Positions 9,701 through 61,218 are shown, numbered from the stretch's first letter. The stretch: DNA of 64,000 nt from Bacilli bacterium (GCA_017511375.1 JAFWKJ010000009.1:3407-67406), one strand, 5' to 3'. Program-made: numbers and translations. The notes: a model not told the origin generated them from the sequence alone.

Positions 9701-9710
9701 GAGGATTTAT

Positions 9711-9968: not shown

Positions 9969-9980
9969 AGGAGGTGCCCT

Positions 9981-10585: not shown

Positions 10586-10610
10586 AACTTTCATTAAGAA
10601 AGTTCTTTTA
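10584..10610. terminator. Bidirectional rho-independent terminator between convergent genes
   Basis: AGAACTTT/AAAGTTCT stem (10584-10591 / 10599-10606) flanked by A- and T-runs. Confidence 0.65.
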
Positions 10611-11601
10611 TATTTTTATAGATTGTACATTTAGGGAAATAATAATTTAAAATTGTATAAGTATTTCCCCCATTATTTTCGATACAACTAGCTCCATAGA
10701 TACTAAGTCCCAAAGCGTTCCCTACACCTTTCGTAATAAATCGCAAGCCATTTTTATTCACAATAATCGATATATCATTTGCTTTTAAATGTAGAATTTC
10801 TTTCATTTCACGAATAGAAAATGTCTTATACTTCATCTTAATAGAACTTCCATTGTTTTGTACAGTAATAGGAGAAGAAGCATCAAGAGAAATATGAAAT
10901 AAGTTGCTTAAAGTATGATAATCATAATCAATAATGTGTAAGTAATCAGGGGATGCTAAATCCCATAAACTTTTGACACTGGATAAGTATGGGTACTTTG
11001 CATTAGACACCGTTTTTCCTCCATTACAATAATGAATAAAAGGAAGAATATATTTCTTTTGATAAGCTAGAAATAAACAAGAAGAAGCTTGAATAATAGA
11101 GGAAATACGATTCAAAATAGAAGAATAGTTTGTGTATTTTGTTTGATATTCAGAAACAGGAATATAATAAGCAAAAGGATTATCTGCTAAAACAAAACCC
11201 TCTTCATCCATTTTTTTAAATACATACGTATTAAAGAGAATACAAATACTTCTTAAAACTTCATCCCCTAAATCATCCTGATAATAAGCAAACAATATGC
11301 TAGTTAAATACTCTCGTAGAGTCATTTCAATCATAGATTGATCCTCTAATTTTAAATGAAGAAGATAATGATCAGGATCATAATAATACGGATGTTTATA
11401 TTCAGCCTTTTTCACAATCACCCCATCAACAACATAGTAGATTTTATTTCCATGAAAAGGAATTTGATTAATTTGAATGTATTGATTGGAATAAAGAGCT
11501 AAGTCTTGATCAAACTCACTAGAAAATTCATAAGAATGACTTAAGTATAAATAAAGGATTTCTTCTCCTAAAACATCTCTTATTTCGTATTTTGAAATCA
11601 T
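10594..11601 (-). CDS. SpoIID/LytB-domain-like protein
   Basis: ..ICILFNTYVFKK.. and ..IHYCNGGKTVSNAKYPYLSSVKSLWD.. resemble the SpoIID core (sGG.T......pYL.sV.d). The start is moved to ATG 11601 because the tracked GTG sits inside the RBS AGGTGA. Confidence 0.5.
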   Translation of the reverse strand: MISKYEIRDVLGEEILYLYLSHSYEFSSEFDQDLALYSNQYIQINQIPFHGNKIYYVVDGVIVKKAEYKHPYYYDPDHYLLHLKLEDQSMIEMTLREYLTSILFAYYQDDLGDEVLRSICILFNTYVFKKMDEEGFVLADNPFAYYIPVSEYQTKYTNYSSILNRISSIIQASSCLFLAYQKKYILPFIHYCNGGKTVSNAKYPYLSSVKSLWDLASPDYLHIIDYDYHTLSNLFHISLDASSPITVQNNGSSIKMKYKTFSIREMKEILHLKANDISIIVNKNGLRFITKGVGNALGLSIYGASCIENNGGNTYTILNYYFPKCTIYKNIKELS

Positions 11602-11656
11602 AGATATCACCTAATTATAGGATGTTCCAAAAAAAGAAGAATATACAAAAAAAGAA

Positions 11657-12625
11657 TTAAAATTCAAAATATTTTAATTCTTTTTTATCATTACAATTTA
11701 AACCAGTAACATAACTCGTATTATCAAATATCTTTTCTAAGTCAATGTTCTTATCATTTAGATAATCAAAACTCGCACAAGTAAGTACTTTCGCCAGCTT
11801 AATAGCTTTTAAATATAAATCTACAAAAGACTCAGTGCTTGTTTTATCATAAACACAAGGGTTTCTCCATAGAGTGTGATCACTATTAAGATAGTTATGC
11901 GTATCCTCTAATGGGTAGTGATAACTAATGGCTTCAAAACGGAACCAACTTCTTGGAGTAAAAGTATCTGCCAACTTATAAAAGAATTTTTTGATTCTAA
12001 AACGATCTTTTCTAAATATTCGAATAGAGTAACGCATTTGTTTTAAAGATTTATAGTATACCTTGCTCATATCCGCCATTTGAAAAGTATTATAGAATGT
12101 ATAATCAATTGTCTTTTCTAAATCATTTGAGAAAGGACTAATATCAAAACAAAAGTCTGAGAAATTAAATCGATAAGGATTCATATTCATACGTCTTTGA
12201 ATCATATCGTTATCTATAAAAGTTTCCATAAAGGCATGAACATTATTATACTTATAGGTTGAAGGTTTATCCTTTTCAAACTTACCAGTACGATATACCA
12301 CATAAGGATGAACAGTAGAATCTACTGCATAATGACAGATATTTCCAAAAAGATAGGAGTACGTATCCTTATCCTGAATATGATTATCTTTCATATATTT
12401 TAAAAGATTTAAAAAGAACTCCTGTGATTGATTTTCATGAAAATAACCTTGAAAATGACGCATCTTTTTCCCTGGGAAAATTGAAAATAAATTATAAAAC
12501 TTTAAACTATCAATTCCTTGACCGTACATTTTGCTTTTTTCTAAATCAAGTTGTTCACATACTTTATCAGGTAAAATATCATAGACATCTTTCACAAAGA
12601 AAGAATGTGTTGCTGTTGCTGGCAT
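11657..12625 (-). CDS. Zinc-dependent phospholipase C family protein
   Basis: N-terminal MPATATHSFF.. and ..NICHYAVDSTVHPYV.. His-rich blocks are typical of the Zn_dep_PLPC family. Confidence 0.55.
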   Translation of the reverse strand: MPATATHSFFVKDVYDILPDKVCEQLDLEKSKMYGQGIDSLKFYNLFSIFPGKKMRHFQGYFHENQSQEFFLNLLKYMKDNHIQDKDTYSYLFGNICHYAVDSTVHPYVVYRTGKFEKDKPSTYKYNNVHAFMETFIDNDMIQRRMNMNPYRFNFSDFCFDISPFSNDLEKTIDYTFYNTFQMADMSKVYYKSLKQMRYSIRIFRKDRFRIKKFFYKLADTFTPRSWFRFEAISYHYPLEDTHNYLNSDHTLWRNPCVYDKTSTESFVDLYLKAIKLAKVLTCASFDYLNDKNIDLEKIFDNTSYVTGLNCNDKKELKYFEF

Positions 12626-17224: not shown

Positions 17225-17767
17225 TTAATTTGTTGATTTTCTAGCTTTGTAGATTCCAAATCCTATACCACCAACTACGACTAGTATGATGATTAGGGCA
17301 AGAACGTCGCCAGCAGCGCCTTTCTCTTCATCTTTTGGAAGTAAAGCCATTACATCATATCTTTCTTCAACTGGTGTATTATACATTTCATCAATTTTTT
17401 CTTTGATTTCAGTTGCCATAGAGTCTTCGCTGAATCCAATCCATGATTGATCTCCACAGATGATATAAGGAACACCTGATGCATCATCACCTCTAAAATC
17501 GCTTACCTTTTGCATTAATGCAGCATTATCTTCATCACTCCATACTTCATAGTACTGAATTCTAAATTTACTACCATATTCTTCTTCAATTGAAGAAAAC
17601 CATTCTTTAGCTTCTGCACAGTGAGAACAAGTTGCTCCATGGAAGAAATAAACAACAACACGATCATCCTTTGCAGCAGTAGTAGTCTCTTCGTCTTCAG
17701 CAAATGCAACAAATGGAAACATAAATACGAAAGCTAATACTAACACGATATACTTTAAATTCTTCAT
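17225..17767 (-). CDS. Exported thioredoxin/glutaredoxin-fold protein with C-terminal membrane anchor
   Basis: Signal peptide MKNLKYIVLVLAFVFMFPFVAFA, a CSHC redox motif, and a C-terminal TM followed by KARK. Confidence 0.6.
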   Translation of the reverse strand: MKNLKYIVLVLAFVFMFPFVAFAEDEETTTAAKDDRVVVYFFHGATCSHCAEAKEWFSSIEEEYGSKFRIQYYEVWSDEDNAALMQKVSDFRGDDASGVPYIICGDQSWIGFSEDSMATEIKEKIDEMYNTPVEERYDVMALLPKDEEKGAAGDVLALIIILVVVGGIGFGIYKARKSTN

Positions 17768-47481: not shown

Positions 47482-47916
47482 ATGAGAATCATTGAGTTTG
47501 AAGAAAAATATCGAGATGATATGATTTTTATGGTTCTAAGCGCTAAAAATGCAATAGGAAGGATTCCAAAATTAAATAGTGATTTTCTAGACATTAAAGC
47601 AAACTATTTTGATAAAGGACATCCATTTTGGATTGCTTTAGATGAGTTTGATAGAGTCATAGGTTGTATTGGGACAAGAGAAGATGAGGACGGGAATTTA
47701 TTCTTATCACATCTATATGTAAAATATGATATCAAAAGACATGGACTTGGTGGAAAACTAGTAGAGTTAGCAGAAAACTCCGCAAGAGAAAGAGGGTACA
47801 AAGAGGTACATGTTCATCTAGGAAAAGAGTACTTAGAAAGTCATATTTTTTATCCAAAACATGGTTATAAAGAATACAAAGAGTTATACATGAAAAAAGA
47901 ATTAGGAATCTCCTAA
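47482..47916 (+). CDS. GNAT-family N-acetyltransferase
   Basis: Motif A LYVKYDIKRHGLGGKLVELAENSARERG. Confidence 0.75.
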   Translation: MRIIEFEEKYRDDMIFMVLSAKNAIGRIPKLNSDFLDIKANYFDKGHPFWIALDEFDRVIGCIGTREDEDGNLFLSHLYVKYDIKRHGLGGKLVELAENSARERGYKEVHVHLGKEYLESHIFYPKHGYKEYKELYMKKELGIS

Positions 47917-47925
47917 TTCTTTTTT
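47893..47925 (+). terminator. Rho-independent terminator overlapping the GNAT stop codon
   Basis: Perfect 9-bp stem GAATTAGGA/TCCTAATTC (47899-47907 / 47911-47919) followed by T6. Confidence 0.75.
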
Positions 47926-47934
47926 GAGACAATT

Positions 47935-47967
47935 AGAAAGAATAACCCCCAATAATGGTTTTGGAGA
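47935..47967 (-). other. Decayed copy of the tRNA-Trp 3' half (anticodon loop to T arm); att-like direct repeat
   Basis: AACCCCCAATAATGGTTTTGGAGA matches 21 of 24 nt of tRNA-Trp segment 59907-59930 in the same orientation. The match extends with a 2-nt gap to about 33 nt. Confidence 0.5.
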
Positions 47968-48040
47968 TGATGTCAATATTTTAATAGACCTTTCTTCACC
48001 TTTTTTTGACCTTGAGCGCGAGAGGTAAGAATTTCGAAGG

Positions 48041-48155
48041 TCTAGCCTGTAAGATGTAGAATGGAAATAGTCTTTATTTTTACTAAAAGTATATAAATCG
48101 TAATAAAAATCAAAACAAAAGAACCGCAAGGGGTGCGTGGGAAGGCGGTTCTTTT
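48041..48155. repeat. Left copy of an imperfect ~115-bp inverted repeat bounding the island; contains a complete hairpin
   Basis: Its reverse complement aligns with 59729-59845. Perfect blocks are GGCGGTTCTTTT (48144-48155) and GTAATAAAAATCAAAA (48100-48115). Hairpin GAACCGC(48121-48127)/GCGGTTC(48145-48151). Confidence 0.6.
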
Positions 48156-48249
48156 ATTAATGGTAGTTGCAGAAACTAAAGAAAAAGCATAACTGACCAA
48201 CCACATTCAAATAAAAAAGGATGAGATAATAGGAATCAGAAAAAAAATA

Positions 48250-48258
48250 TGTTATAAT
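48250..48258 (+). promoter_or_regulatory. Extended -10 promoter (TGTTATAAT) for the Dam-class methylase
   Basis: TG at 48250-48251 and TATAAT at 48253-48258, 27 nt upstream of the ATG with RBS TAGGAGGA between them. Confidence 0.45.
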
Positions 48259-48284
48259 GTTAAAGAAAGATAGGAGGATAAATA

Positions 48285-49163
48285 ATGAAAAAAGAAGTAA
48301 TTAGCTCACCAATACGTTGGGCCGGTTCAAAGAAAAAACTCCTAAATGAAATGTTGGAAGAAACATTTAAAAAACATCAAAAAAACTATGTTGAATGCTT
48401 TTTAGGATCAGCAGTTGTATTATTAAATGTTATTAACAATAATGAGGATTTGAATTATGAAAATTATTATGTAAATGATATAAACTCCAATATTATAAAT
48501 TTTTATATTTTACTACAAAAGAATCCAGAATATCTAATCACTAAAATCAAAGAATTAAGCGATAAATATAATAACTTGTCATTAAATGAAAAATCCAACT
48601 TGTTTTATGAAATCAGGAATGCATTTAATTGCTCAGATAATTCAGATGAAAAATCTATATATTTTTATTTTTTAATGAAAACAGGATTTAATGGTGTGTA
48701 TAGAGAAAACAGCAAAGGACAATTTAATGTACCATTTGGCAGAAAAGAAAAAATAATCATAGATGAAAATTATCTAATAAAAATTTCTACAATGATAAAA
48801 AAAGTGAAATTTTATAATTTGCCATTTGAAGATTTTTTGGATAAGATGAGTAAAAAAGGAATACTAGATGATGCGTTTGTATATTGTGATCCACCATATC
48901 TACCTGATGATCTACTTGTTTATCAAAAACAAATGCTATATACAAAAGACTCATTCAATCACGAATTGTTTTTCTCAACTTTAAATGAAATGGATATAAA
49001 GAATGTTATGATTTCAATGTCAGAATCTAAAATTGCAGACCAGATATATAACAAACAACCATTTAATAAAATTGATGTCAGAAATATTATAAGAGTTATA
49101 AATCCAAAAAAGCTTTTCTCTTCAAAGGAAGTTGCATATATAAATTATCAAATTGAAGAGTAA
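48285..49163 (+). CDS. D12-class (Dam-family) N6-adenine DNA methyltransferase, no adjacent cognate endonuclease evident
   Basis: N-terminal SPIRWAGSKKKLL, motif I CFLGSAVV, and motif IV YCDPPYLP (DPPY). Confidence 0.85.
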   Translation: MKKEVISSPIRWAGSKKKLLNEMLEETFKKHQKNYVECFLGSAVVLLNVINNNEDLNYENYYVNDINSNIINFYILLQKNPEYLITKIKELSDKYNNLSLNEKSNLFYEIRNAFNCSDNSDEKSIYFYFLMKTGFNGVYRENSKGQFNVPFGRKEKIIIDENYLIKISTMIKKVKFYNLPFEDFLDKMSKKGILDDAFVYCDPPYLPDDLLVYQKQMLYTKDSFNHELFFSTLNEMDIKNVMISMSESKIADQIYNKQPFNKIDVRNIIRVINPKKLFSSKEVAYINYQIEE

Positions 49164-49207
49164 AAAGCTCTTTTTTTTGTAAAGAAATGATAATAATTAC
49201 AAAATAT

Positions 49208-49237
49208 TTGACAAATATTGTGAAAATGTGATATATT
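49208..49237 (+). promoter_or_regulatory. Promoter of the 5-gene operon (TTGACA, 18-nt spacer with TGn, TATATT)
   Basis: TTGACA at 49208-49213, TG at 49229-49230, TATATT at 49232-49237. The tracked start 49228 lies inside this promoter. Confidence 0.5.
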
Positions 49238-49260
49238 TTTATTGGAAAGAGGCGATATCA

Positions 49261-49482
49261 ATGAGTGTAAAAAGTGATAATTTTAAAAGAATTTCCGATA
49301 ATCGTGTAAAGAAAATTAATGATCTGATATCAAAACTTCACAACTTAATAAATCCGTCATTCTACGAGTATAACGATAAAGAGATAGACGAAATGTTTGA
49401 TAATATTCAGAATGAGTTAGACAGGCAAAAGGAATTGTTTTTAAAAGAAAGAAATAAACCTAGAAAGAAGAAGGAACTATGA
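49261..49482 (+). CDS. 73-aa helical micro-protein with basic tail, first gene of the candidate system
   Basis: ATG follows AAAGAGG. Its stop overlaps the next start (ATGA at 49479-49482). Confidence 0.5.
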   Translation: MSVKSDNFKRISDNRVKKINDLISKLHNLINPSFYEYNDKEIDEMFDNIQNELDRQKELFLKERNKPRKKKEL

Positions 49483-52046
49483 GAGCATGTGATATTATAA
49501 AAAATAAATTGCCAAGTACTTCTTCAATCAACAAAGATAATCGCTATATAAAATATTTGATGATTTCTTCTATTGCTAATAAGAAGAACACCTTAGAATT
49601 AATATCTAAACATATCGCTTTAAATATAGATGACAATGCATTTGTTGATGAAGATGCACTGAGTTTCTATTTGAATATCAACTTTGATTCAAATGGAAAG
49701 GAAGAATATATTTTATCCAAACAAGAAGAAGACTTATATTTACTATTTCATCAGTTGATAAAATCAATAAATGAAATGGCTGATGTCAGCAATGAAAATT
49801 TAATATCATTAATAATGGAGAAAATAGATACACATTATGAAGAAGCACTTGCCTATAATTTTTTATATTTTAAGAACAATTGTAATGAGAAATATTCAGA
49901 CTTGTATTTACGTTCAATATATTTTGATTTATTGAAAAATTATTATAATTATAAAACTCAATATGAAAACATAAGAGCAAAGTTTAACATAATAGAAAAA
50001 GATGAAATGTTTAATGAGTTATATGACGATATAAAAGATAATCCATTATTATCTATGCTGGTTACATATTCAAATACGTTTGAAAAGAAATGGTTAAAAA
50101 GATTTAATATTGTAACTTTAAAAGACCTTTTAAATAACAATTACAAGGTGTTATCTTTGATTTTTTGTATTGAAACAGATAGCTATTTAAGAGTACTTAA
50201 TGACATAGATGCAGAAAAAATAGATAATATCTTTAATCGTTTGACGAATTATTATAATGAATTAGATGATAAATATCTATTTATTTATAACTCAAGAATA
50301 AAGCTGGTTGGAACAGATAGAGTATTGACACTTCAAGAAGTTGGGAATGAAATAGGACTAACACGTGAAAGAGTCAGACAAATAGAAGCAAAAATTCACA
50401 AAAAAATTAATTATATTAGAATTAACTTCGATGATTTAATTCCAATTTTTAGATACGTTGACAAAAAAGGGATATTATATATATCTAATGAAAAATTCAT
50501 TAAAATACTTAATAATGACATAATTGCTAAATTAATAAAAATAAAAATTAGTAATGCCAACAATATAAAAATACATTTTTCTGAAGAATATGATACTTTT
50601 TATTTTGAAGAAAAAAGTATAGAAGAAATTGTTGATGAATTTAAAAAAAGTCTTCCATCTGTAATAACTGAAGAGAATTATAGGAATACCACCTATATTG
50701 AAAAGATGATAATTGACAATGACTATAAATTATCAAAGAAAGGATTCTATATTAAGAAACACTACAACGAAAGTGATACATATTTAGAATTATTAGACTT
50801 ATATTTTCCGAATGGATACAGAATAAATAACGATGATGATTATAATTTCCTTATGGATAAATATAAAGAAATGTATAAAACCGAAGAGGTTCCTACAAGT
50901 AGTAGATATATAGCAACAAAATTGGATAGAAATGAAGATTATTGTATTATTGATAGAGGTTTATATCTGCGTAGAGATAAATGCCCAGAATTACCTAATA
51001 TATTAAAGAATAAGATTATTAATTATATTAAGAATAGTAATCTAGTTGTATACTATAGTGAAATCTATGAGTTGTTTAAATTTGAATTAAACATGAAAAA
51101 TATAAATAATCAATATTTGCTTAAGGGTCTTATTGACCATGAGTTGGATAGTAAATTTCATACTAGTAGAGACTTTATAACTTATGGAACTCAACAGAAT
51201 AAATGGGATGCAATTATAAACTATATGAGAAGTTTCAACAATATTTTTACATTAGACGATTTATATAATGAATTTCCAGGAGTTTCATACACAATATTTC
51301 AAGGTATTATTTCTAGTGAAAGTGATAAAGATTTACTGATTTTATATAACAAGAGATTTATATATGTAAATAAGACAAACATTGAAGTTATTAAGATTGA
51401 ATTAAAGAATAAAATAGAAGAATTATTTACAACTTTAAATACAAATTATCTAACATCGCATAAAATATTTGCAAAAATTGCTTTGTCTAATAATAATTTC
51501 CTATCAAAAGTGAATTTTGAAGTGGATGGATTTAATCTTTATTCAATTATTAGAAGCTTATTTCCAAACGATTACTATTATAGAAGACCAATTATAAGTA
51601 AATTAGATGCCGGAATAATAACTAATATTATTGCTCTTCGCCAATATTTAATAACGTTAGATGAATTTGACATCAAAAAAGTTGAAATGTATGTAACAAA
51701 AATGGGATTATCTAATAAATGGTATTATGAATACTATACCCTATGTGAATATATGAGTGAGGATTTTGTTTTAGTAGACAAAAAGACAATGATAAAAAAA
51801 GAAAAGCTTGATGTTGATGAATACACTCTAAGCCAGATAGAAAGTAGTCTAGATGCTTTATTAGAAAGGTATGATGAAATTAAATTAAATGAATTTGATG
51901 CATATTTTGTATTTCCGGATATAAAAGGGTATGAGTGGAATGAATATCTATTAATAGGTTTAATAAATGCATATATGCTTGATAAATACGAAATAAAAAA
52001 AGATAATATTAATTTCTATATAAGGAGGATTAACAATGAACTATAA
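49479..52046 (+). CDS. 855-aa protein with an internal sigma-70 region-4-like HTH, otherwise unknown
   Basis: LTLQEVGNEIGLTRERVRQIEAKIHKKI (nt ~50321-50408) matches the region 4.2 consensus. I see no P-loop or nuclease motif. Confidence 0.6.
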   Translation: MRACDIIKNKLPSTSSINKDNRYIKYLMISSIANKKNTLELISKHIALNIDDNAFVDEDALSFYLNINFDSNGKEEYILSKQEEDLYLLFHQLIKSINEMADVSNENLISLIMEKIDTHYEEALAYNFLYFKNNCNEKYSDLYLRSIYFDLLKNYYNYKTQYENIRAKFNIIEKDEMFNELYDDIKDNPLLSMLVTYSNTFEKKWLKRFNIVTLKDLLNNNYKVLSLIFCIETDSYLRVLNDIDAEKIDNIFNRLTNYYNELDDKYLFIYNSRIKLVGTDRVLTLQEVGNEIGLTRERVRQIEAKIHKKINYIRINFDDLIPIFRYVDKKGILYISNEKFIKILNNDIIAKLIKIKISNANNIKIHFSEEYDTFYFEEKSIEEIVDEFKKSLPSVITEENYRNTTYIEKMIIDNDYKLSKKGFYIKKHYNESDTYLELLDLYFPNGYRINNDDDYNFLMDKYKEMYKTEEVPTSSRYIATKLDRNEDYCIIDRGLYLRRDKCPELPNILKNKIINYIKNSNLVVYYSEIYELFKFELNMKNINNQYLLKGLIDHELDSKFHTSRDFITYGTQQNKWDAIINYMRSFNNIFTLDDLYNEFPGVSYTIFQGIISSESDKDLLILYNKRFIYVNKTNIEVIKIELKNKIEELFTTLNTNYLTSHKIFAKIALSNNNFLSKVNFEVDGFNLYSIIRSLFPNDYYYRRPIISKLDAGIITNIIALRQYLITLDEFDIKKVEMYVTKMGLSNKWYYEYYTLCEYMSEDFVLVDKKTMIKKEKLDVDEYTLSQIESSLDALLERYDEIKLNEFDAYFVFPDIKGYEWNEYLLIGLINAYMLDKYEIKKDNINFYIRRINNEL

Positions 52047-53934
52047 TATATGGAGATTTCCAAGTAATAATTTTACAAGTGAGAGTGGATTAAACAACTC
52101 AGATATGGAAACATTTAAGAGAGATCCTATGGCGTCTTTAGCAAGAGAAATATGTCAAAACTCACTAGACGCTAGAAGAGCGGAATGCAATAAGGCAATC
52201 GTAGAATTTGAGGTATTTACTATAAATAATACTGATATTCCAGGATACTCAAGACTAAAAGAAGAAATAGAATCATGTCACGATTACAGAAAGCATCCTA
52301 ATGATAAAGCGGAATTAGCGGGGATGTTAAATTCAATCAGCAATGAAAAAATAAAATGTTTGAGAATTAGTGATAAGAACACGACAGGATTAGGTGATGT
52401 TTTTGGTTCAACAGAAGATAGTAAATTTTATTTACTAACTAAGGGAAGTGGATTAACTTCAAAAATTGGAGGAAAAGGTGGTTCAAAAGGTGTAGGTAAG
52501 TTTGCATGCTTTGTAGCAAGTTCTTTTAATACGGTTTTTTATTCAACTAAGAATGAAGCAGGAGAAGAAGGTTTCCTAGGTATAAGTAAATTATGTTCTA
52601 CTATTTTTAAAGAATCTCCTGATCAGAGAACAGTCGGAATCGGTTATTACAGTAGTGATGAAAGAAATTTACCTATTGCAGGACAATTGAATCTTCAACC
52701 AAACTATACAAGAACAGAATTTGGAACAGATATATACGTATTGGGTTTTAAAGGAGTAGATGATTGGAAAAAGAAAATCATTACTATGATTTTAGACAGT
52801 TTTATGGTTGCTATAGTATTTGATGAACTAGAAGTTAGAGTTGACGACATTTTATTAAATAAAGAAACAGTTGGGAAATTAATTAATAAAGATTACATTA
52901 CAACAAGTAATCAATTAATAAATATAAAAGCACAATATGAACTGTTAACAGACGATGACATTTATTCAGAAAATTTAAAATTAGATGATTTTGGCGAAAT
53001 CAAAGTTTTATTAAAAGCCTATAAAAAAGAAGAAGCTGAAGAAGCAACAAAAAATTGTATTATGGTTAGATATCCACACATGAAGATTAGGACATTAAGA
53101 AAAATATCATCAGTACCATGTTCGGCTTTATGCATTATAGAAGACAGTGATTTTAACAACAGATTAATAAATGTAGAAAATCCACAACATACAGATTGGG
53201 AAACAAATAGACTTTCTGGTGCATTAAAAGCAGAAATGGACTATCAAATAAATACAATGGAAGATAGTATCCTTAACTATGTAGCTGATACTTTATCAAT
53301 GGGGCTAGAAGAAGAAAGTGATATTGAAGGAGCTGGAGAATTTTTACCTTCAGCAAATAATGATGGTGATTTCGGTGAAAACAAGCCTGCCATTATTGAA
53401 AAACCAATAGTAATTCCAAAAACAAGAGCAAAAATAAAAGACACAAATCCAGCAACATCTGCAGATGATGGAAGCGAAGCAGATATTCCAGATGTTGGTG
53501 ATTTTGGTGATGATGGAGATGACACTTCGCAACCTGAAGGGCATAATCAAGGAACTGGTGGCGGAGTACATGAAACAGATAAAAAATCAGGGTACAAAGA
53601 AGGAGACAAAGAAATTTTAAGAACAGCACCATTAAAAGGGATGAAATATGTGCCAATTATCCCTAACAAGTCTTCAGGAGAGCTGATTATATCTTTTAAA
53701 TCACTATATGATGAAAATGATTGCCAACTATTATTAAGTTATAAAGATGAATCAAATCAGAAATATAAAGTTAATATATCAAGTGCTACTATTAATGGTG
53801 CTACAGTTGATGTTAACGACGGTATTATTGATGGGTTTAACTTGGAAATAGGAAAAGAATATACAGTAAAAGCTCAAACCGATGTGTATGATTATTATAG
53901 AATTGAGGTGGCTATATATGCGAATAAGAAATAA
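52036..53934 (+). CDS. GHKL (MORC/Hsp90/MutL-type) ATPase-domain protein with acidic linker and beta-rich C-terminal domain
   Basis: N-box REICQNSLDA (ExxxNxxDA), G1 ISDKNTTGLGD, G2 GGSKGVGKFA. RBS AAGGAGG and an 11-nt overlap with the upstream gene. Asp/Gly-rich linker DIPDVGDFGDDGDD. Confidence 0.65.
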   Translation: MNYNIWRFPSNNFTSESGLNNSDMETFKRDPMASLAREICQNSLDARRAECNKAIVEFEVFTINNTDIPGYSRLKEEIESCHDYRKHPNDKAELAGMLNSISNEKIKCLRISDKNTTGLGDVFGSTEDSKFYLLTKGSGLTSKIGGKGGSKGVGKFACFVASSFNTVFYSTKNEAGEEGFLGISKLCSTIFKESPDQRTVGIGYYSSDERNLPIAGQLNLQPNYTRTEFGTDIYVLGFKGVDDWKKKIITMILDSFMVAIVFDELEVRVDDILLNKETVGKLINKDYITTSNQLINIKAQYELLTDDDIYSENLKLDDFGEIKVLLKAYKKEEAEEATKNCIMVRYPHMKIRTLRKISSVPCSALCIIEDSDFNNRLINVENPQHTDWETNRLSGALKAEMDYQINTMEDSILNYVADTLSMGLEEESDIEGAGEFLPSANNDGDFGENKPAIIEKPIVIPKTRAKIKDTNPATSADDGSEADIPDVGDFGDDGDDTSQPEGHNQGTGGGVHETDKKSGYKEGDKEILRTAPLKGMKYVPIIPNKSSGELIISFKSLYDENDCQLLLSYKDESNQKYKVNISSATINGATVDVNDGIIDGFNLEIGKEYTVKAQTDVYDYYRIEVAIYANKK

Positions 53935-54811
53935 CTTGTTTCCATATCCAGTATTGAATTCCAAAGAAACAATTTCATCATTTGTTAACTCACTTTTTAG
54001 ATTTGATTATGAAGAATTTCAAGATGACAATTATTATTATTTGAAAGATATAAAAATTGATTTAAGTGATGAAAAAATTCTGGAATTAATGGAACAGGGA
54101 AAAGCGGAAGCAAAAATAATTGTTGAATGCTCTAGAACCATATATAGAAATATTTTTTCAGTAGATTTAAATACAACAACAATAAAAATCCCTATCTCAG
54201 AATTAAGAGGACCAGTAGAAATATCTTGTTTTATCTACGCAAAGGAGAATATAAAAGACTATTATAGCAATAACTTCAATAAGATATATGGAGAATATAG
54301 ATTTGATATAGATAAATTTGATATTTTAGCTGTAGATGATGGATATAATACTAAAATAGATTTTGATGAGCAAAAAGATAATAAAGTATCATCAATCTTT
54401 GTAGTAGTAAGTAGTGGTGATCCAAATTCAAAAACAATGGATTTTGATGTTAAACGAAAGAATATTAAGATTACTTTGCCTAATAAAGAATATGGATTTT
54501 ATACAAATATGAAAAATGATACAAATTATCAAAATGTGTTTTTTGCAATCATCGCTATACCAGCTTTAACATATGCTTTATCAAAAGCGCAAGAAGAAGA
54601 TTTTGAAACAGCAAGAAATACATATGATTGGCTTGAATCAGTAATAAATGCTTATGAAAAAATATATGAAAGAAATATTAAAGATGATTGGGGAAAACTA
54701 GAAGTTGATGTTCCACAAAGGTTATTAAATAATGCAATTACACAATCTATTGATGATTTCTACTTCTTAATGATAGACAGATATAGAAAAAGAGGTGAAG
54801 GTGATGAATAA
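53918..54811 (+). CDS. 297-aa protein of unknown function (fourth gene of the operon)
   Basis: ATG 53918 follows GAGGTGG and overlaps the upstream gene by 17 nt. N-terminus is MRIRNNLFPYPVLNS. Confidence 0.5.
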   Translation: MRIRNNLFPYPVLNSKETISSFVNSLFRFDYEEFQDDNYYYLKDIKIDLSDEKILELMEQGKAEAKIIVECSRTIYRNIFSVDLNTTTIKIPISELRGPVEISCFIYAKENIKDYYSNNFNKIYGEYRFDIDKFDILAVDDGYNTKIDFDEQKDNKVSSIFVVVSSGDPNSKTMDFDVKRKNIKITLPNKEYGFYTNMKNDTNYQNVFFAIIAIPALTYALSKAQEEDFETARNTYDWLESVINAYEKIYERNIKDDWGKLEVDVPQRLLNNAITQSIDDFYFLMIDRYRKRGEGDE

Positions 54812-55598
54812 TTTGATAAATGTTATGTATGTAACTGATCAATTGTTAGAAAATTTGCGTGAAAATGCAGTGGAAGTTGGAGAATTAATTAAAAGTCACT
54901 CAGATACTTTATGGCTAAAGAAATATGCCTCTGGCCAAATGTTTGAAGAAAAAAAATTTACAATACCAGATTTCAAATTACACCTCAGTGACGATGGAAA
55001 TTATGATAAAGTTGATTACATGAACTGTATAACTCTATATGAATCACTTAATAAACTACCAAGATATGTATTAACAAATGAAAATTTTTGGGTTTGGCTT
55101 GAATTAACGTCATGCTATGAAGTTTGTAGACAGGCTATGCCAATAAAATCAAAATCTACATTTAAAGATCACTGGCTATTTAGTGGAGGAAACAGAAGAG
55201 GTATATTCTTCGGGGTTTTATCACGATGCTATTTTAGAGTAGAATTAACTGTAGATGAATCTTTACCAGATAAATATGAGTTAACAAAATTTGTTTGTGA
55301 AAAAAATGAAAGATTTAGAACATTAACATGGAGAAGTATTTCCAGTGAAAAACATGTTGTTTTAGGCGTTATAAAAGCTGAAAAGGATTTATACGATGAG
55401 TACAATCAAAATCCGGAAACAGCTGAAATGTTCCGTAAGGCAGAAGCAGGTAAAAATGGAGAAAATTTATATACAGAGTTTAGTAAGCAATTATCATTAT
55501 TTGGAAGTGTAAGATTACTTGATGCACTTTCAGAAAATGAAATATATGAATTTTCAAAGAATAAAATGGTGGAATTGATAAAAAGATTTAACAGTTAA
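54804..55598 (+). CDS. 264-aa protein of unknown function (fifth gene of the operon)
   Basis: ATG 54804 follows AGAGGTGA and overlaps the upstream stop (ATGAATAA). Contains Trp-rich blocks ENFWVWLELT and LSRCYFRVELT. Confidence 0.5.
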   Translation: MNNLINVMYVTDQLLENLRENAVEVGELIKSHSDTLWLKKYASGQMFEEKKFTIPDFKLHLSDDGNYDKVDYMNCITLYESLNKLPRYVLTNENFWVWLELTSCYEVCRQAMPIKSKSTFKDHWLFSGGNRRGIFFGVLSRCYFRVELTVDESLPDKYELTKFVCEKNERFRTLTWRSISSEKHVVLGVIKAEKDLYDEYNQNPETAEMFRKAEAGKNGENLYTEFSKQLSLFGSVRLLDALSENEIYEFSKNKMVELIKRFNS

Positions 55599-55626
55599 AA
55601 AAGATGCATTTTTATGCATCTTTTTC
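55597..55626. terminator. Bidirectional terminator closing the operon and the convergent m5C methylase gene
   Basis: Perfect 9-bp stem AAGATGCAT/ATGCATCTT (55601-55609 / 55614-55622) with flanking A- and T-runs. Confidence 0.7.
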
Positions 55627-56856
55627 ATTTTCTATAATCTTTTCCAATTCTATACCAATTTTTTCTATTACACCGACAACTAAAGCATTCCCCATCATAA
55701 AGTATCTTCTCTTGTCTGACATTCCTGTATTAGTCCAGTCGTCAGGGAATCCATTTATTCGTTCACATTCTTTCGGAGTTAATAATCGAGGCCTTTTGGT
55801 TTTATAATCTTCAATTACATGAGTAGAACGACTTATGCCGCTTTCACTTGTAAGCATTGTTCTTGCCGGAGCATCTAAATTGTCTGGGAATGGCATAGCT
55901 CCTTCCGTATAATAATATGGCTCACCTGTTGGCTTTGTTCTAGGAATCCTCTTTCCACCTTTTAAATATTTAAACTTTTCAATTTGATTGTCGCTCAAAA
56001 AGTACTTTTCATCTATCACATCTTCTTCGCGAATATTACGAAGAGGAAATATTAGATTATAATCAGCCTTTACTTTAACCGTGTAAATTCCACCTTTTTT
56101 CATTATTCCTGCATTATAAAACTGGCATTTAAACATATTACTTACTTCTATTAAATCTTTATAATCAGCAACGCTTGATTCTGATATCTCGCTATAGGAT
56201 TCTTTTATTGGAAATTGTTGAACAAACATCCCCTTAGAGAAAATAACGTCATAGTCAGATACCTTTTGCATTTGTTTATAATAGTTAGTAGATTTATGGT
56301 ATGCGAACATATAAGTTCTTCTACGTTTTTGTGGCAAACCATATTCCCCAGCATTTATTACTCTCCATTGAACATCGTATCCATTTTCATAGAAACTTCT
56401 TAGAATCATTCCGAAATCTCTACCTCTTTGTTTAGCTGGAGAAAGTAATAATCTATCAACATTCTCTAATAAAACAAATGGAGGTTTTTTTATTGCAAGA
56501 GTTTCTTCAATTGCCCACCAAAGGACTCCTTTTTTGCCTTCAATTCCTTTACTGGTTGATAAGGATTGCGCAACAGAATAATCCTGACATGGAAATCCTC
56601 CAACTAATAGTGTATGATCTGGAATATCATGTTTATCAACCTCAAATATATCTATATTAGAAACATCTTTATCTCCAAATCTTAAAGCATAGCAGTCAAA
56701 AGCCTCTTGAGATTTAGTAGCTGGTTCCCACTGATTAGCCCATAAACATTTCCATTTACCGTTTTCTATTGTTTTTCCATCTTTCAATTCTACATGATTA
56801 AGTCCGCAACGGAACCCCCCAACTCCTGCAAATAATTCAACCAAAGTTTTTTTCAT
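55612..56856 (-). CDS. DNA (cytosine-5)-methyltransferase
   Basis: Motif I ELFAGVGGF, motif IV GGFPCQDYS, ENV, QKRRR, and motif X GNALVV. The start is moved to ATG 56856 after AGGAGG. Confidence 0.9.
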   Translation of the reverse strand: MKKTLVELFAGVGGFRCGLNHVELKDGKTIENGKWKCLWANQWEPATKSQEAFDCYALRFGDKDVSNIDIFEVDKHDIPDHTLLVGGFPCQDYSVAQSLSTSKGIEGKKGVLWWAIEETLAIKKPPFVLLENVDRLLLSPAKQRGRDFGMILRSFYENGYDVQWRVINAGEYGLPQKRRRTYMFAYHKSTNYYKQMQKVSDYDVIFSKGMFVQQFPIKESYSEISESSVADYKDLIEVSNMFKCQFYNAGIMKKGGIYTVKVKADYNLIFPLRNIREEDVIDEKYFLSDNQIEKFKYLKGGKRIPRTKPTGEPYYYTEGAMPFPDNLDAPARTMLTSESGISRSTHVIEDYKTKRPRLLTPKECERINGFPDDWTNTGMSDKRRYFMMGNALVVGVIEKIGIELEKIIENEKDA

Positions 56857-56982
56857 AATGAAACCTCCTGACATTTGTTTTAATACTATAAATATATTAT
56901 AATTTATTTGAGATAAAAGATCAACTTACAATTTTATTTTAACCTATTTTTTATGCTAAAACAAGATCGAAAGGAGAAAAAA

Positions 56983-58362
56983 ATGAAAAAAGGTAGATTA
57001 TACAATAGACAAGAGATTGAAGTTATATCAAAATCTGCTATTGGAAAGACAATGAATGATATTCTAAAAGAAGAATTAGTGTCAATCGGTGATATAGACA
57101 ATAAAGGTGGATTAGGACAGTTGATTGAACAATATTTATTTGGAATACAAACAAACAATGAATCTGAACCTGATTTTATGCCTGCTGGTATAGAATTAAA
57201 AGTAACTCCATACAAGAAAATAAAAGGGGGTAAATTATCAGCTAAAGAAAGACTTGTATTAAATATTATTAATTACATGGAAGAATGGAAAAATGATTTT
57301 AGACATAGTCACTTTTGGATGAAAAATAATACAATACAATTATTATGGTATTTATGGGAACCAAATAAGGATTTTAAAGATTTTAAAATCACTCACGAAA
57401 AATTAATGGAACTAGTTCAAAGTGAAGACATAAAGCAAATAGAAAATGACTGGAATTATATTGTAAGCAAAATTAAAGAAGGAAAGGCACATGAACTGTC
57501 AGAAGCAGATACAATGTATTTGGGTACATGTACAAAGGGAGTCAACTCAAGTTCAACGAGAGAGCAACCATTTAGTGATATAAAAGCAATGCAACGAGCT
57601 TTTTGCTTTAAAAATTCATATATGACACAAATGGTAAGAAAAATAATAGGGGATTATAGTGATGTTGAAAAAGTTCTAAAAGGAACAAATAATACATTCA
57701 ACGAATATGTCAATAACGTTATTGAAAAATATAAAGGTAAAACTCAAAAAGAATTAATGAAAGAATTCAGTATAGATTCTAAAGCTAAGAATATTAATAG
57801 TATGCTTATAAGTAGAATGTTTAATGTCACAAGTAAACTAGCAGATACCGAGGAATTTCAAAAAGCAAACATTATTCCTAAGACAATAAGAATCGAAGAA
57901 AGTGGAAGAATCAAAGAATCAATTTCATTTCCTTCTTTTAAATTTAATGAAATAATTGAACAAGAATGGGAAACTTGTGATTTAAGAGAAGAATTAGAAA
58001 CAACTAAATATATGTTCTTTGTATTTAAAAAGGAAAAAGGTGAATATGTTTTTAAGGGTATCAAATTATGGAATATGCCAGAAACTGACATTGAAACATC
58101 TGTAATGGAAATGTGGAAAAAAACATATAATACAATTTTAAATGGTAATATAGTTAGATACATAAAAGATGGTAAAAGAAAAACAAATTTTGTTGGAATG
58201 AGTGAGAATGAAGTATGTCATGTTCGTCCTCACGGAAGAGATTCAAGAGATACATTTAAGTTACCAGTAGCTGATAAATTAACAGGTGCTACTGAATATA
58301 CTAAACAATGTTTTTGGATTAACAGCAACTATATAAAAGGAATTTTTGAAGAGTTTAATTAG
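56983..58362 (+). CDS. Sau3AI/MutH-family type II restriction endonuclease
   Basis: GGLGQLIEQYLFG..ESEPDFMPAGIELKVTP carries the MutH/Sau3AI D..E-x-K catalytic block. Two-domain length. Divergent from the m5C methylase. ATG follows AAAGGAG. Confidence 0.8.
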   Translation: MKKGRLYNRQEIEVISKSAIGKTMNDILKEELVSIGDIDNKGGLGQLIEQYLFGIQTNNESEPDFMPAGIELKVTPYKKIKGGKLSAKERLVLNIINYMEEWKNDFRHSHFWMKNNTIQLLWYLWEPNKDFKDFKITHEKLMELVQSEDIKQIENDWNYIVSKIKEGKAHELSEADTMYLGTCTKGVNSSSTREQPFSDIKAMQRAFCFKNSYMTQMVRKIIGDYSDVEKVLKGTNNTFNEYVNNVIEKYKGKTQKELMKEFSIDSKAKNINSMLISRMFNVTSKLADTEEFQKANIIPKTIRIEESGRIKESISFPSFKFNEIIEQEWETCDLREELETTKYMFFVFKKEKGEYVFKGIKLWNMPETDIETSVMEMWKKTYNTILNGNIVRYIKDGKRKTNFVGMSENEVCHVRPHGRDSRDTFKLPVADKLTGATEYTKQCFWINSNYIKGIFEEFN

Positions 58363-58371
58363 GAGGTTTTA

Positions 58372-59625
58372 TTGGTGAATAATAAAGTTACTTTTGAAGA
58401 TGTAATTAGTGGTAAAAGCAAAAAATTGATTATTGATTGTATATATGAAAATAAGCAGCCAAATAAAGATATGAGTTGTAGAGTATTACCAAAACTAATG
58501 AAGGTTCAGAATACTGGAGGATTTAGACCGATAGGTGAATATAAAAATAATTTCGCAGTTAAATATGTCGTATTATATTCGACTGGAGAAGATATTTATT
58601 GGCAAGATGATTTAGATGAAGAACTAGGCTTGTTTATTTATTATGGAGATAATCAAAGAGCAGGAAGAGACATTTTGGATACAAAACTTGGAGGGAATCT
58701 AATATTACAAAAATCATTTGAATTGGCTTGTTCTGGTAATCTGGATGATAGAAAGAAGATTCCACCATTCTTTTTGTTTCAAAAAGATGAAAATGCAAAT
58801 GTAAAATTTTCTGGACTGTTAGTTCCTGGATACAAAAACATAAATGAAAAAGAATGGTTGACTGCATTATGGGCAAAGAGAAATGAAGGTGGACGTTTTC
58901 AAAATTATAAAGCAATGTTCACAGTTTTAGATACTGAAGATGGATCAATAGCAAATCCAAATAATGCCTCAATTGATTTGCAATGGATAGATGATTTGTT
59001 AAATGGAAAAGGATACGATAGTGAACATGCACCAAAAGCATGGAAAAATTGGATTGATAAGAGTGTATATAAACCTTTAACTGTTAATGTTGATTCCAGA
59101 ATTAGAACAAAAGAAGAACAATTACCTAAGGAAAAAGAAAGGTTGGAAATGTTGCAATATATTCATGATTATTTCTATAATAAAGAAAGAAAATCAGATG
59201 CAACAAATTTTGAACCTTTTGCAATAGCATTAACTACGTTAGCAGATACTAATATTATAAGTTGTGATAATACTAGACCATCCAAAGATGGTGGCAGAGA
59301 TGGTGTTGGTGAATATAGAATTATGAATGGATTAAATCAAGCCCTAAAAACAGTTTTTGCTGTGGAAGCTAAATGTTATGATTTAAACAATTCTGCAGGT
59401 GTAAAAGAAACCTCAAGGCTAATTTCTAGAATCAGGCATAGACAATTTGGAGTTTTTGTTACAACATCATACGTTGATATCCAGGCATATAAAGAAATAA
59501 TAGAAGATGAACACCCCATTGCTATTATTGCAGGTGCAGATATCATAGATATTTTATATCAAAATGAAATAACCGATTTGCATAAACTAAAAGAATATTT
59601 AAATAATAACTTTCCAAAAGAATAA
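58372..59625 (+). CDS. Candidate modification-dependent (type IV) restriction enzyme: N-terminal SRA-like domain plus C-terminal Mrr-like PD-(D/E)XK domain
   Basis: N-terminal KYVVLYSTGEDIYWQDDLDEELGLFIYYGDNQRAGRD..TKLGGNLILQKS parallels the SRA/YDG core (Y.G.GG.....Q.L..gN.aL). C-terminal SKDGGRDGVGEY..FAVEAKCY..FGVFVTTSY parallels Mrr_cat (DgGiDg..vQaK..gi.itts.f). Confidence 0.55.
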   Translation: MVNNKVTFEDVISGKSKKLIIDCIYENKQPNKDMSCRVLPKLMKVQNTGGFRPIGEYKNNFAVKYVVLYSTGEDIYWQDDLDEELGLFIYYGDNQRAGRDILDTKLGGNLILQKSFELACSGNLDDRKKIPPFFLFQKDENANVKFSGLLVPGYKNINEKEWLTALWAKRNEGGRFQNYKAMFTVLDTEDGSIANPNNASIDLQWIDDLLNGKGYDSEHAPKAWKNWIDKSVYKPLTVNVDSRIRTKEEQLPKEKERLEMLQYIHDYFYNKERKSDATNFEPFAIALTTLADTNIISCDNTRPSKDGGRDGVGEYRIMNGLNQALKTVFAVEAKCYDLNNSAGVKETSRLISRIRHRQFGVFVTTSYVDIQAYKEIIEDEHPIAIIAGADIIDILYQNEITDLHKLKEYLNNNFPKE

Positions 59626-59728
59626 GATAGATATGATTTTTCATATCTGTCTTTATTGATACTTGAAGTGGCATGCTTTTTAGATTCTCTAGGCACTCAC
59701 TTAATAAGCTAAAGAACCTATATAATAA

Positions 59729-59845
59729 TAAAAGAACCGCCTTTCCCGCACCTATTGAGATTCTGACTTTTGATTTTTATTACTATTTATCAATACTTTT
59801 TAAAAAGAAAGACTATAGGAATTCTGTTCTTATAAGCAGACTAGC
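59729..59845. repeat. Right copy of the imperfect ~115-bp inverted repeat bounding the island
   Basis: Aligns with the reverse complement of 48041-48155. Perfect blocks are AAAAGAACCGCC (59730-59741) and TTTTGATTTTTATTAC (59768-59783). The hairpin's second arm is not conserved here. Confidence 0.6.
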
Positions 59846-59849
59846 AAAT

Positions 59850-59877
59850 AAAAAAGTAGCAAGCTTGCTACTTTTTA
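59850..59877. terminator. Terminator downstream of tRNA-Trp (bidirectional)
   Basis: Palindrome GTAGCAAGCTTGCTAC (59856-59871) flanked by A6 and T5. Confidence 0.7.
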
Positions 59878-59885
59878 TTTTCAAA

Positions 59886-59959
59886 TGGCAGGGGATGAGA
59901 GAATCGAACTCCCAACAGTGGTTTTGGAGACCATTATTATACCATTTAACTAATCCCCT
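59886..59959 (-). tRNA. trnW: tRNA-Trp (anticodon CCA), CCA end encoded
   Basis: The reverse complement folds by hand into a cloverleaf: acceptor AGGGGAT/ATCCCCT, D arm GTTA-AATGGTA-TAAT, anticodon arm ATGGT-CTCCAAA-ACCAC, T arm GGGAG-TTCGATT-CTCTC, discriminator G, CCA. Confidence 0.9.
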
Positions 59960-60114
59960 AAAATTTCTTTGGTTCGATAAAGATTATAACACAAAGAATA
60001 AGGCTAATCAATATGAAAACTATAATTTCAAAGGAATAGGTACTATTAAAACTTAATAAATAGTGATATGATTTTTAATAGAATAATGTTAGAATAATGA
60101 TAGAGGTGGTAAGC

Positions 60115-61218
60115 ATGAGATTTGATATTGAAGAAGAACCAAGACAAAAAAGAAAGAAAAGTGATAATGATACGCCTTCAAATCTTACAATCATTGCTGT
60201 ATTTTTAGTAATTGCTGCCATTATTCTCATTGTGACTTATATGTTTTTAAAAAGTGGAAATACATCAGGAAGAACTCCTCAAGTAGAAGTGACAACACCA
60301 ACGCCTTCTACTTCCGCTACACCAACACCAACGCCTGAAGAAGAAAAATTAACAATTGTAGATGAAGAAAGTGATGAGAGACCGATAGCTGTTGTAATTG
60401 ATAACGCTATTGGAGATGCAAGACATGCAGGATTACTAGAATCTTATATAAATTACGAGATCCCAATTGAAGGGGGAGCAACCCGTATCTTAGCCGTATT
60501 TAAAGATGTGGATGCTAAATTAATTGGACCAATCAATGGAGCAAAAAATTATTTTATAGATTATGCTTTAGAAAGTGATTCTATTTTAGTATATTATGGA
60601 TCAAGTAGTGATAAAAAAGATGAAGAAGTAAAAATAGACATAGTAAATGGATTAACAGATTCTGATCCTTTTAGAAGAGATACGAAATCAGTTGCGCCTC
60701 ATAATGTATTTACTAGAATGACTTATTTAAATAGTTTCTTACAAACTTCTAAATATAATTTAGAAACATTAGATTGGCAGTTATTAAATTACAGTGTAGA
60801 AGAAGTGGATTTATCAGAATCAGGTTATGTACCTAAAAAAGCAGTAAAGATAGAATTACCTTATTCTGATACAGAGAAGAGAGTATATAACTATGATGAA
60901 GAAAATGACTATTACTTAAGATCTTCTAATGGACATGATCAATTTGATAGGAAGTCAGGAAAACAACTTCATTATAAAAATATTATTATTGAGAAAGTTC
61001 CAACTAAAACAACTGATGGAGTGTTCCGAGTAGAAACTACAGGAAAAGGAAAAGCTTATATAATTACTGGAGGAAAATATCTTCCTATTACATGGTCAAA
61101 AGAATCAAGAGATGCAAAAACAATTTATACATATGAAAATGGAACAGAGGTTACACTAAATGATGGAAATACATTTATTCAGATTCTTCCTGAAAATTGT
61201 ATATTAACCATTAATTAA
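60115..61218 (+). CDS. DUF3048 (YerB-like) exported protein
   Basis: N-terminal TM, Thr/Pro linker, then RPIAVVIDNAIGDARHAGLLESYINYEIPIEGGATRILAVF, which is typical of DUF3048. ATG follows AGAGGTGG. Confidence 0.7.
   Translation: MRFDIEEEPRQKRKKSDNDTPSNLTIIAVFLVIAAIILIVTYMFLKSGNTSGRTPQVEVTTPTPSTSATPTPTPEEEKLTIVDEESDERPIAVVIDNAIGDARHAGLLESYINYEIPIEGGATRILAVFKDVDAKLIGPINGAKNYFIDYALESDSILVYYGSSSDKKDEEVKIDIVNGLTDSDPFRRDTKSVAPHNVFTRMTYLNSFLQTSKYNLETLDWQLLNYSVEEVDLSESGYVPKKAVKIELPYSDTEKRVYNYDEENDYYLRSSNGHDQFDRKSGKQLHYKNIIIEKVPTKTTDGVFRVETTGKGKAYIITGGKYLPITWSKESRDAKTIYTYENGTEVTLNDGNTFIQILPENCILTIN

Follow-up and report, generated by a model that had tools for sequence, protein, structure and literature searches.

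Introduction

Islands integrated into tRNA genes (tDNA islands) have been catalogued in Islander (Hudson, Lau and Williams 2015; Williams 2002), where those with anticodon-centred (type A) attachment (att) sites account for 2083 of 3919 islands, and att sites centred on the anticodon together with displaced tRNA fragments are an established signature of such islands (PMC4383910). The nearest published concept for the elements described here is that of the tycheposons of Prochlorococcus, which are described as small cargo elements with a tyrosine recombinase that insert at specific tRNA genes (Hackl et al., bioRxiv 10.1101/2020.12.28.424599). Here, we analyze an island at a tRNA-Trp gene of a Bacilli bacterium, located in a stretch of 64,000 nucleotides (nt; GCA_017511375.1, JAFWKJ010000009.1:3407-67406) that is referred to as the window at its full length and belongs to a 70% complete metagenome-assembled genome (MAG; G000) of 1.2 Mb. 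An earlier note on this DNA had described the island as bounded by a copy of part of the tRNA and as lacking an integrase. Our results indicate that the region ~47936-59930 very probably represents a degenerate member, deprived of its integrase gene by a deletion, of a family of defence islands that integrate site-specifically in gut Bacilli.

Results and discussion

The target tRNA gene and its displaced copy

The tRNA-Trp(CCA) gene is located at 59886-59959 on the minus strand with its 3' end oriented toward the island, as the earlier note had stated and as ARAGORN and Rfam (61 bits) agree. It represents the regenerated target gene (attL), with the crossover core at 59923-59929, a TG-extended promoter at 60011-59983 and an intrinsic terminator at 59851-59876 (minus strand), which the relative G029 also has between its tRNA and integrase genes. 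The sequence of tRNA-Trp is identical in nearly all members of the genus. At the opposite end of the island, adjoining the terminator of a chromosomal GNAT gene, lies a decayed, displaced 3' fragment of tRNA-Trp (attR remnant; 47936-47967, minus strand). The direct match claimed between 47944-47967 and 59907-59930 could be reproduced with 21 of 24 identical positions, and its proposed extension across a 2-nt gap holds for 28 of 32 positions between 47936-47967 and 59897-59930, the repeat spanning the tRNA from the anticodon loop to the T arm. The remnant retains the 7-nt crossover core, the anticodon loop CTCCAAA (47960-47966; TTTGGAG on the plus strand), as well as the arm-side half-site (GACATCAT), and carries a single change in the tRNA-side half-site (ACCATT instead of ACCACT). 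It aligns to a 92% identical tRNA 3' half in G025 and to exact halves in G009 and G021.

A repeat that is common elsewhere in the genome, which the earlier note had named as evidence against an att scar, was not found, since neither the window nor the 1.2-Mb assembly as a whole contains another site with at least 20 of 24 matches. A 21/24 site did not occur in any of 100 Markov-shuffled sequences of 64 kb. The gapped alignment reaches a score of 23 as compared to 11.5 +/- 1.5 (maximum 18) in shuffles of the local 600 nt, none of 500 of which attained 23.

Intact relatives share a common map

A recombinase of the G009 type was searched against 185,579 species genomes. About 30 recombinase loci with 70-100% identity were recovered, all of them in MAGs of uncultured gut Bacilli, including some mislabelled bins. 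About 25 loci are long enough to show one common map, consisting of tRNA-Trp, a Xer-like tyrosine integrase, an antisense pseudo-tRNA, an arm, the cargo, an inverted arm and a tRNA 3' fragment of 44-45 nt; the distal fragments are 98-100% identical to the tRNA. In intact members the arms measure 200-330 nt and the variable defence cargo 3-8 kb. The far end of the element in G009 and G021 consists of the exact 45-nt 3' part of tRNA-Trp, followed by an arm whose start coincides exactly with TTTGGAGA, which is antisense to the anticodon loop. At the tRNA end, the inverted arm is followed by a decayed tRNA 5' half, an antisense pseudo-tRNA (positions 1-58) and the gene of a tyrosine recombinase of 346-355 amino acids (aa), which adjoins tRNA-Trp. 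This recombinase is a simple Xer-like enzyme that stays below the cut-offs of the XerA, XerC, XerD and IntI models; its nearest solved relatives are XerA and XerD. Tandem arrays of the element are found in G030, G027 and G009.

The left module of the window (47936-48189) recurs with 85-91% identity in many genomes of the genus, often as inverted pairs 6-17 kb apart, and a conserved motif of the arms was detected in 46 stretches, all of this lineage. A full-text literature search retrieved no published description of the element family, which was found only in one lineage of uncultured gut Bacilli and whose architecture is apparently undescribed. The proposal of the earlier note that the repeat is the footprint of site-specific integration into a tRNA gene is thus supported by relatives that hold the exact 44-45-nt fragment together with an integrase, and by a tRNA split at CTCCAAA.

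Two side observations concern these elements. In G009, Rfam gives a weak tRNA match (L083:13154-13226, 37 bits, not called by ARAGORN) about 90 nt past the distal att fragment and in convergent orientation to it, which probably belongs to the original flank on the chromosome. At the loose end of a contig from a bovine gut data set (run X25; window position 47954), a sequence resembling the arm continues into a different tRNA-like 3' end (GGCAGGGGTAGAAGGACTCGAACCCTCGCG), which suggests that sister elements target another tRNA.

A sub-family with a split tRNA points to the crossover site

In one sub-family (L086, L087 and L082) the element itself brings a complete tRNA-Trp gene together with 65 nt of upstream DNA. 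The chromosomal tRNA of the L086 type is split into a 5' fragment (positions 1-37) and a 3' fragment (positions 31-74), which overlap only in CTCCAAA; in L086 these features lie at 9644-11700, with attR at 17645-17688, and the corresponding region of G026 is L131:6668-6832. The attL site of the sub-family reads ...AATGGT-CTCCAAA-TTACTTGG and the attR site ...CATCAA-CTCCAAA-ACCACTG...CCA. The junction of the L086-type proximal arm, GGTCATCAA-CTCCAAA-TTACTTGG, matches the attP of the arrangement P-O-P' deduced from attL and attR, and in L086 it forms a complete inverted attP. The split-tRNA junctions in the three loci place the crossover within the 7-nt anticodon loop CTCCAAA, flanked symmetrically by the anticodon stem. 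The same 65 nt and tRNA positions 1-60 are repeated downstream of the integrase in inverted orientation and with 100% identity. Therefore, the sub-family integrase itself lies between inverted repeats.

We propose that intact members encode a simple Xer-like tyrosine recombinase without an arm-binding domain, which would join the attP of the element to the anticodon stem-loop of tRNA-Trp with CTCCAAA as the overlap region. Integration would leave a functional tRNA beside the integrase, with a displaced 3' fragment of the tRNA at the opposite end, and repeated integration would give rise to tandem arrays. The cargo is located between two inverted arms, each extending from the att core to a terminator-like hairpin; the arms may serve as insulators and supply the homology for swapping, and sometimes flipping, modules by homologous recombination. 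The window has undergone a deletion of ~1.56 kb, and its island would be a fixed, immobile locus.

Loss of the integrase from the window

No recombinase was found among the ten Pfam-scanned proteins (GNAT and nine island open reading frames, ORFs), and Pfam and six-frame searches detected no integrase in the window or on its contig, in line with the earlier note, which had seen no recombinase ORF in the island. The genome-wide integrase search that it had suggested was carried out as well. Six-frame searches of the assembly detected no serine recombinases and just two of the tyrosine type, which are encoded on contigs C5 and C16; an orthologue of the family integrase was not present elsewhere in the 70% complete MAG, where the best match is a Xer-like protein with 28% identity. 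The two genes (C5:10920-11432 and C16:5759-6265 of G000) encode tyrosine recombinases of ~310-324 aa and are presumably the housekeeping XerC/XerD pair; with the G009 integrase as query, one TAA stop is read inside the longer alignment to the C5 copy.

When the window is compared to G029, whose contig has the same orientation, homology stops at 59826 and resumes at 59850, continuing through the terminator and the tRNA. On the window side, only the inner ~107 nt of the integrase-proximal (P-type) arm are left (59720-59826, minus strand; 92% identical to the P arm of G029), which include the sequence specific to the P type, followed by a deletion junction of 23 nt (59827-59849) in place of ~1.56 kb. 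The segment missing from the window corresponds to positions 281-1839 of L134 (G029), which comprise the outer P arm, the antisense pseudo-tRNA and the integrase gene. The integrase is thus absent because of a deletion of ~1.56 kb, evident from the comparison to the intact neighbour G029, that also took the pseudo-tRNA and the outer proximal arm.

Every contig of this species that was found in several other samples contains the island in identical or nearly identical form. Since the assembly contains no orthologous integrase and the island is present in all of these contigs, it is fixed and, as far as visible, immobile. We therefore infer that the island of the window is a fixed, immobile defence locus, which fits the description as immobilised in the earlier note.

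Flanks and the search for an empty site

The right flank of the island (DUF3048, GpsA, DUF308, DUF402) stays in synteny with tRNA-Trp throughout the genus, and the left flank shows no synteny between species. A contiguous GNAT-terminator-tRNA-Trp site without the island, for which the earlier note had proposed to look, was found neither in 60 relatives searched with both flanks nor in same-species contigs searched via the GNAT and GpsA proteins. In the two relatives examined in this respect, G026 and G014, the GNAT gene is located elsewhere and is followed by unrelated genes without arm or fragment. Thus, in neither of these two was the sequence of 47935-47967 seen behind GNAT, an arrangement that the note had considered to speak against an att scar.

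The DNA downstream of tRNA-Trp contains mobile or defence genes in all five relatives examined, and in G004 and G028 Shedu and large serine recombinases take the place of the element family. In genus members that lack the element family, regions L138:617-6749, L142:4855-6780 and L140:6115-8951 hold a Shedu SduA-like protein, large serine recombinases and a helix-turn-helix (HTH) protein with a kinase-like protein. Judging from these gene contents, the site downstream of tRNA-Trp appears to be a general hotspot.

Sequence and structure of the arms

The distal (D-type) arm of the window, read inward from the att core, comprises ~200 nt (47960-48162, plus strand) and is 85-94% identical to arms in many relatives. 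It contains a conserved covarying hairpin (~48003-48031) and an inward-facing terminator-like hairpin GAACCGC...GCGGTTC with a T-run (48121-48159). Close to each end of the island, on its inner side, the window shows an inverted repeat of ~100 nt with ~80% identity (48044-48162 and 59722-59835), which the earlier note does not mention, the remnant of the P arm being a ~80% inverted repeat of 48058-48159; no further copies of this repeat are present in the host genome. The arms fall into proximal (P) and distal (D) types, whose type-specific differences are conserved across species, and the window has one arm of each type. Both arms of an element start exactly at the att core in inverted orientation, and the two arms within one element are more alike than arms of different elements. 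In the window, the distal att fragment and both arms have diverged.

Each arm contains a long hairpin, a short GC hairpin and the inner terminator-like hairpin. Compensatory changes in the long hairpin are GACC/GGTC, GGGGC/GCCCC and GAAAT/ATTTC. A hand-specified three-helix model, the only one to show covariation, has 42 double-change cells, contributed mainly by helix 1; shuffles gave 20.4 +/- 2.8 and slid controls 8-20 such cells. The RNAalifold consensus for the inner 168 nt of the arms is weak (-2.3 kcal/mol). An outer stem formed by 47986-47992 and 48037-48043 was rejected, as relatives change AAGGTCT to GCGGGCT with AGACCTT unchanged. A consensus scan revealed no promoters in the arms, and no Rfam families besides tRNA were detected in the window or in one intact element. 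Four RNA-labelled runs cover exactly the conserved arm and nothing else; these are strandless contigs and therefore uninformative on expression. In gut metagenomes that contain the host species, the arms and the tRNA (47913-48383 and 59688-60158) reach 5-40 times the summed contig depth of the flanking island. Assemblies break frequently at the arms and the tRNA because many co-resident relatives share these sequences.

The arms bracket a variable cargo slot

The cargo of 15 intact elements consists of diverse defence genes, including restriction-modification (R-M) systems, AbiL, a CBASS-type cyclase, AriA, ThsB, TOTE and PDC-S01, and is transcribed mostly outward, toward the arms. In elements with 92-95% identical backbones, homology ends at most ~25 nt from the inner ends of the arms and the cargo is unrelated. 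In L086, one two-gene module is separated from the P arm by 30 nt; in L087 it has the opposite orientation and is separated from the D arm by 31 nt. Both the stop of homology at the inner arm ends and the flipped module show that the arms bracket a swappable cargo slot. This inter-species flip, seen on contigs, is the only one observed; 19 of 21 pairs of elements with shared cargo keep its orientation. The switch point between L086 and L087 is located inside a block of ~25 nt (GGTGTGGGGAAAGCGGTTCTTTTAT) that is identical in both arm types, as would be expected of homologous recombination between arms. We infer that the arms insulate the transcription of the cargo and supply the flanking homology by which cargo is swapped or flipped through homologous recombination.

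When Logan contigs from four metagenomes were compared with the island for joints indicative of excision or inversion, the only joints were short arm-to-arm contigs of co-resident relatives. A contig of the same species from another sample (L144:9691-9917) is identical to the window up to 48164 and continues with 227 nt that are visibly G+C-rich, which represents either a chimeric assembly or a different cargo joined at the edge of the D arm.

Alternative explanations

Several points weigh against the interpretation of the island as a deletion derivative of a tRNA-targeting element. No empty site was recovered, and all same-species contigs carry the island. In other species GNAT is not located beside tRNA-Trp, and integration at the exact junction is presumed. 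An integrase could be encoded elsewhere, as the genome is only a 70% complete MAG. Neither excision nor integration nor transcription was observed in the contigs, and the functions of the arms are proposed ones. Furthermore, the fragment of the window shares the derived AATGG (AGTGG in the tRNA) with the fragments of G030, G003, G001 and G025, and hence the remnant may have been inherited in an already decayed state rather than having decayed in place. As longer arms hold a tRNA-like pseudo-tip at the homologous position, the remnant could also be element-borne. In its strongest form, this last argument would make 47936-47967 a fossil tRNA-like segment of the arm ("tip 2"), the true outer att site having been lost or never present and the island having possibly arrived together with its flank by homologous recombination. 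The AATGG common to the window, G030_b, G003, G001 and G025 would fit such an origin, as would the pseudo-tip (e.g. AAATTCAGTTTAATTGTTTTTTGAGA) that G030_a and all P arms of that sub-family have at the homologous position, 100 nt inside the true tRNA half, and the lack of a conserved left-flank synteny. However, the fragment in G025 is a 92% identical tRNA 3' half extending as far as the acceptor end, while that of G001 is intermediate, which argues for a series of decay and not for a distinct arm sequence. In addition, the similarity in the window runs 8 nt past the 2-nt gap into the T arm, and the fragment abuts the GNAT terminator as expected of the edge of an island. The G025 half and the similarity into the T arm thus favour a displaced fragment, and we regard an origin from the arm as quite improbable. 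A chance match in an ordinary variable defence island without any history of site-specific integration is hardly credible. The match covers only 24-32 nt in A/T-rich DNA and neither integrase nor empty site is at hand, but none of 100 and none of 500 shuffled sequences reached it, it is unique in 1.2 Mb, and it directly adjoins an arm whose counterparts in many relatives are attached to exact tRNA halves and accompanied by an integrase. A transposon with terminal inverted repeats was rejected, as there is no transposase, the ends correspond to att junctions of the tRNA around a 7-bp core, and the relatives carry a tyrosine integrase.

A different question is how the cargo slot is served. The integrase might act on the inverted att cores or on the inverted attP and thereby invert or exchange cassettes in a site-specific manner. 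The inverted start of both arms at the att core, the match of the L086 proximal junction to a P-O-P' attP, the greater similarity of arms within an element than between elements and the one cargo module seen in both orientations are all compatible with this mode of exchange. Yet in the flipped case the arm types stay in position and switch within the longest identical inner block, whereas the entire arm would move as well if the exchange took place at the outer tips. Moreover, 19 of the 21 pairs with shared cargo have the same orientation, and ~25 loci show a single arrangement of the integrase module. We therefore consider service of the slot by the integrase to be unlikely and favour homologous recombination between the arms. 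A broader, speculative proposition, to which we assign a small but appreciable probability, is that the family constitutes a natural cassette-exchange platform with at least partly site-specific exchange, in which the covarying hairpins are structured recognition elements. If true, the family would be a defence-gene shuttle of a new type that differs from both integrons and classical islands, and the window would hold a fossil of it.

Cargo and composition of the island in the window

From left to right, the cargo of the window begins with a D12-class (Dam-like) N6-adenine DNA methyltransferase (48285-49163, plus strand; PF02086, 6.9e-40; PADLOC MTase_II and orphan methyltransferase models). 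An 84-aa ORF and a gene for an 855-aa protein with a sigma-70 region-4 HTH, which weakly resembles MzaA, follow at 49228-52046 (plus strand), upstream of the genes A, B and C of the PADLOC candidate defence system PDC-M33 and overlapping them (52036-55598, plus strand; C is DUF6339). The PDC-M33 genes are adjacent, and every match (PDLC04582, 9.6e-137; PDLC04583, 3.5e-60; PDLC04586, 1.1e-34) covers the full length of the model. The remaining genes encode a C5-cytosine DNA methyltransferase (55612-56874, minus strand; PF00145, 4.5e-63), a Sau3AI/MutH-like type II restriction endonuclease (56953-58362, plus strand; PF02976, 1.6e-29; PADLOC REase_II, 2.3e-107) and a methyl-directed restriction endonuclease with AspBHI-N and Mrr_cat domains (58372-59625, plus strand; PF18062, 1.8e-50, and PF04471; PADLOC mREase_II, 3.1e-128). 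The defence-type cargo and the two methylases noticed earlier are thus confirmed, and of the three nuclease candidates two are. The C5-cytosine methylase neighbours the AspBHI/Mrr-type methyl-directed endonuclease (55612-59625), and the cell can survive only if the two specificities are compatible.

At the aa level, the m5C methyltransferase shares 89-91% identity with methyltransferases in the element cargo of G021, where the integrase is visible, and of G025, whose contig ends before the integrase position. Within the pair at 55612-58362, the MutH/Sau3AI-like endonuclease is only 31-33% identical to its counterparts in G021 and G025, and the nuclease partner seems to have been replaced next to a conserved m5C methylase. 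The PDC-M33 operon has a syntenic, distant copy (36-44% aa identity) in the element cargo of G030. The cargo of the window is a mosaic of modules found in other members of the family.

The G+C content of the island is 28.1% as compared to a genome mean of 30.7% (standard deviation 1.26 in windows of equal size), which corresponds to the 3.3rd percentile. The half with the Dam-like methyltransferase and PDC-M33 has 26.8% (1st percentile), and the R-M half is not distinct (30.1%). The low G+C content is thus real but modest and is carried by the Dam and PDC-M33 half. The A/T-richness that the earlier note had estimated by eye exists, and lack of a compositional shift, which it had named as contrary evidence, was not what the computed windowed values showed; the shift is only modest, however, and absent from the R-M half.

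Significance and comparison with known systems

Overall, the boundaries of the island, the missing integrase and the inverted repeats in the window are now accounted for. The slot of the family holds a different defence system in almost every species, also including PARIS-like and Thoeris-like systems and several PADLOC candidates, and the family is therefore a catalogue for new defence genes in unculturable organisms as well as a concrete case of defence cargo that is swapped on a constant mobile backbone. The compact pair of integrase and att site with its 7-bp core is testable as a genetic tool for low-GC Bacilli.

The island of the window itself is of an ordinary kind, a degraded tDNA island with defence cargo, whereas the architecture of the family is unusual. 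With the tDNA islands of Islander the family shares the tRNA target, the crossover in the anticodon loop, the regenerated tRNA with a direct displaced 3' fragment, the tyrosine integrase beside the tRNA in intact relatives and the tandem arrays. In contrast to these islands, the copy in the window has no integrase, and would hence fail the integrase filter of Islander, and its fragment is decayed. The family also departs from them in its short Xer-like recombinase, the inverted arms of 200-330 nt that start at the att cores, the antisense pseudo-tRNA and the sub-family that brings a complete tRNA-Trp with a promoter and leaves a 5' fragment, too.

Tycheposons likewise leave partial tRNAs, accumulate in islands and act as plug-in cassettes. 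They are defined by a lineage-specific recombinase and hallmarks of replication (primase, helicase) and carry cargo mainly for nutrient acquisition, whereas the cargo here is defence. In a tally of the top 25 Pfam families of 73 cargo ORFs, replication families are not prominent; the single AEP-TOTE primase-like domain is part of a TOTE conflict system, and the family backbone holds only the integrase.

Like integrons, the family combines a tyrosine recombinase of the Xer-like group beside a variable slot with hairpin elements at the cassette borders and defence cargo. Unlike integrons, it has multi-gene cargo, two long inverted arms instead of one attC per cassette and a mobile platform that targets a tRNA, and its integrase scores far below the cut-offs of the IntI models (TIGR02249, 72 bits with a cut-off of 265; NF011946, 35 with a cut-off of 435).

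The FLP/FRT system of the yeast 2-micron plasmid lies in inverted repeats of 599 bp, and engineered cassette exchange makes use of inverted lox sites. Here, too, recombinase cores in long inverted repeats divide the element into a segment with the recombinase and a second segment. The family differs from such systems in that it has no evident replication function and in that inversion was observed once, on an evolutionary scale, and is explained by homologous recombination, and the window differs further in being devoid of any recombinase.

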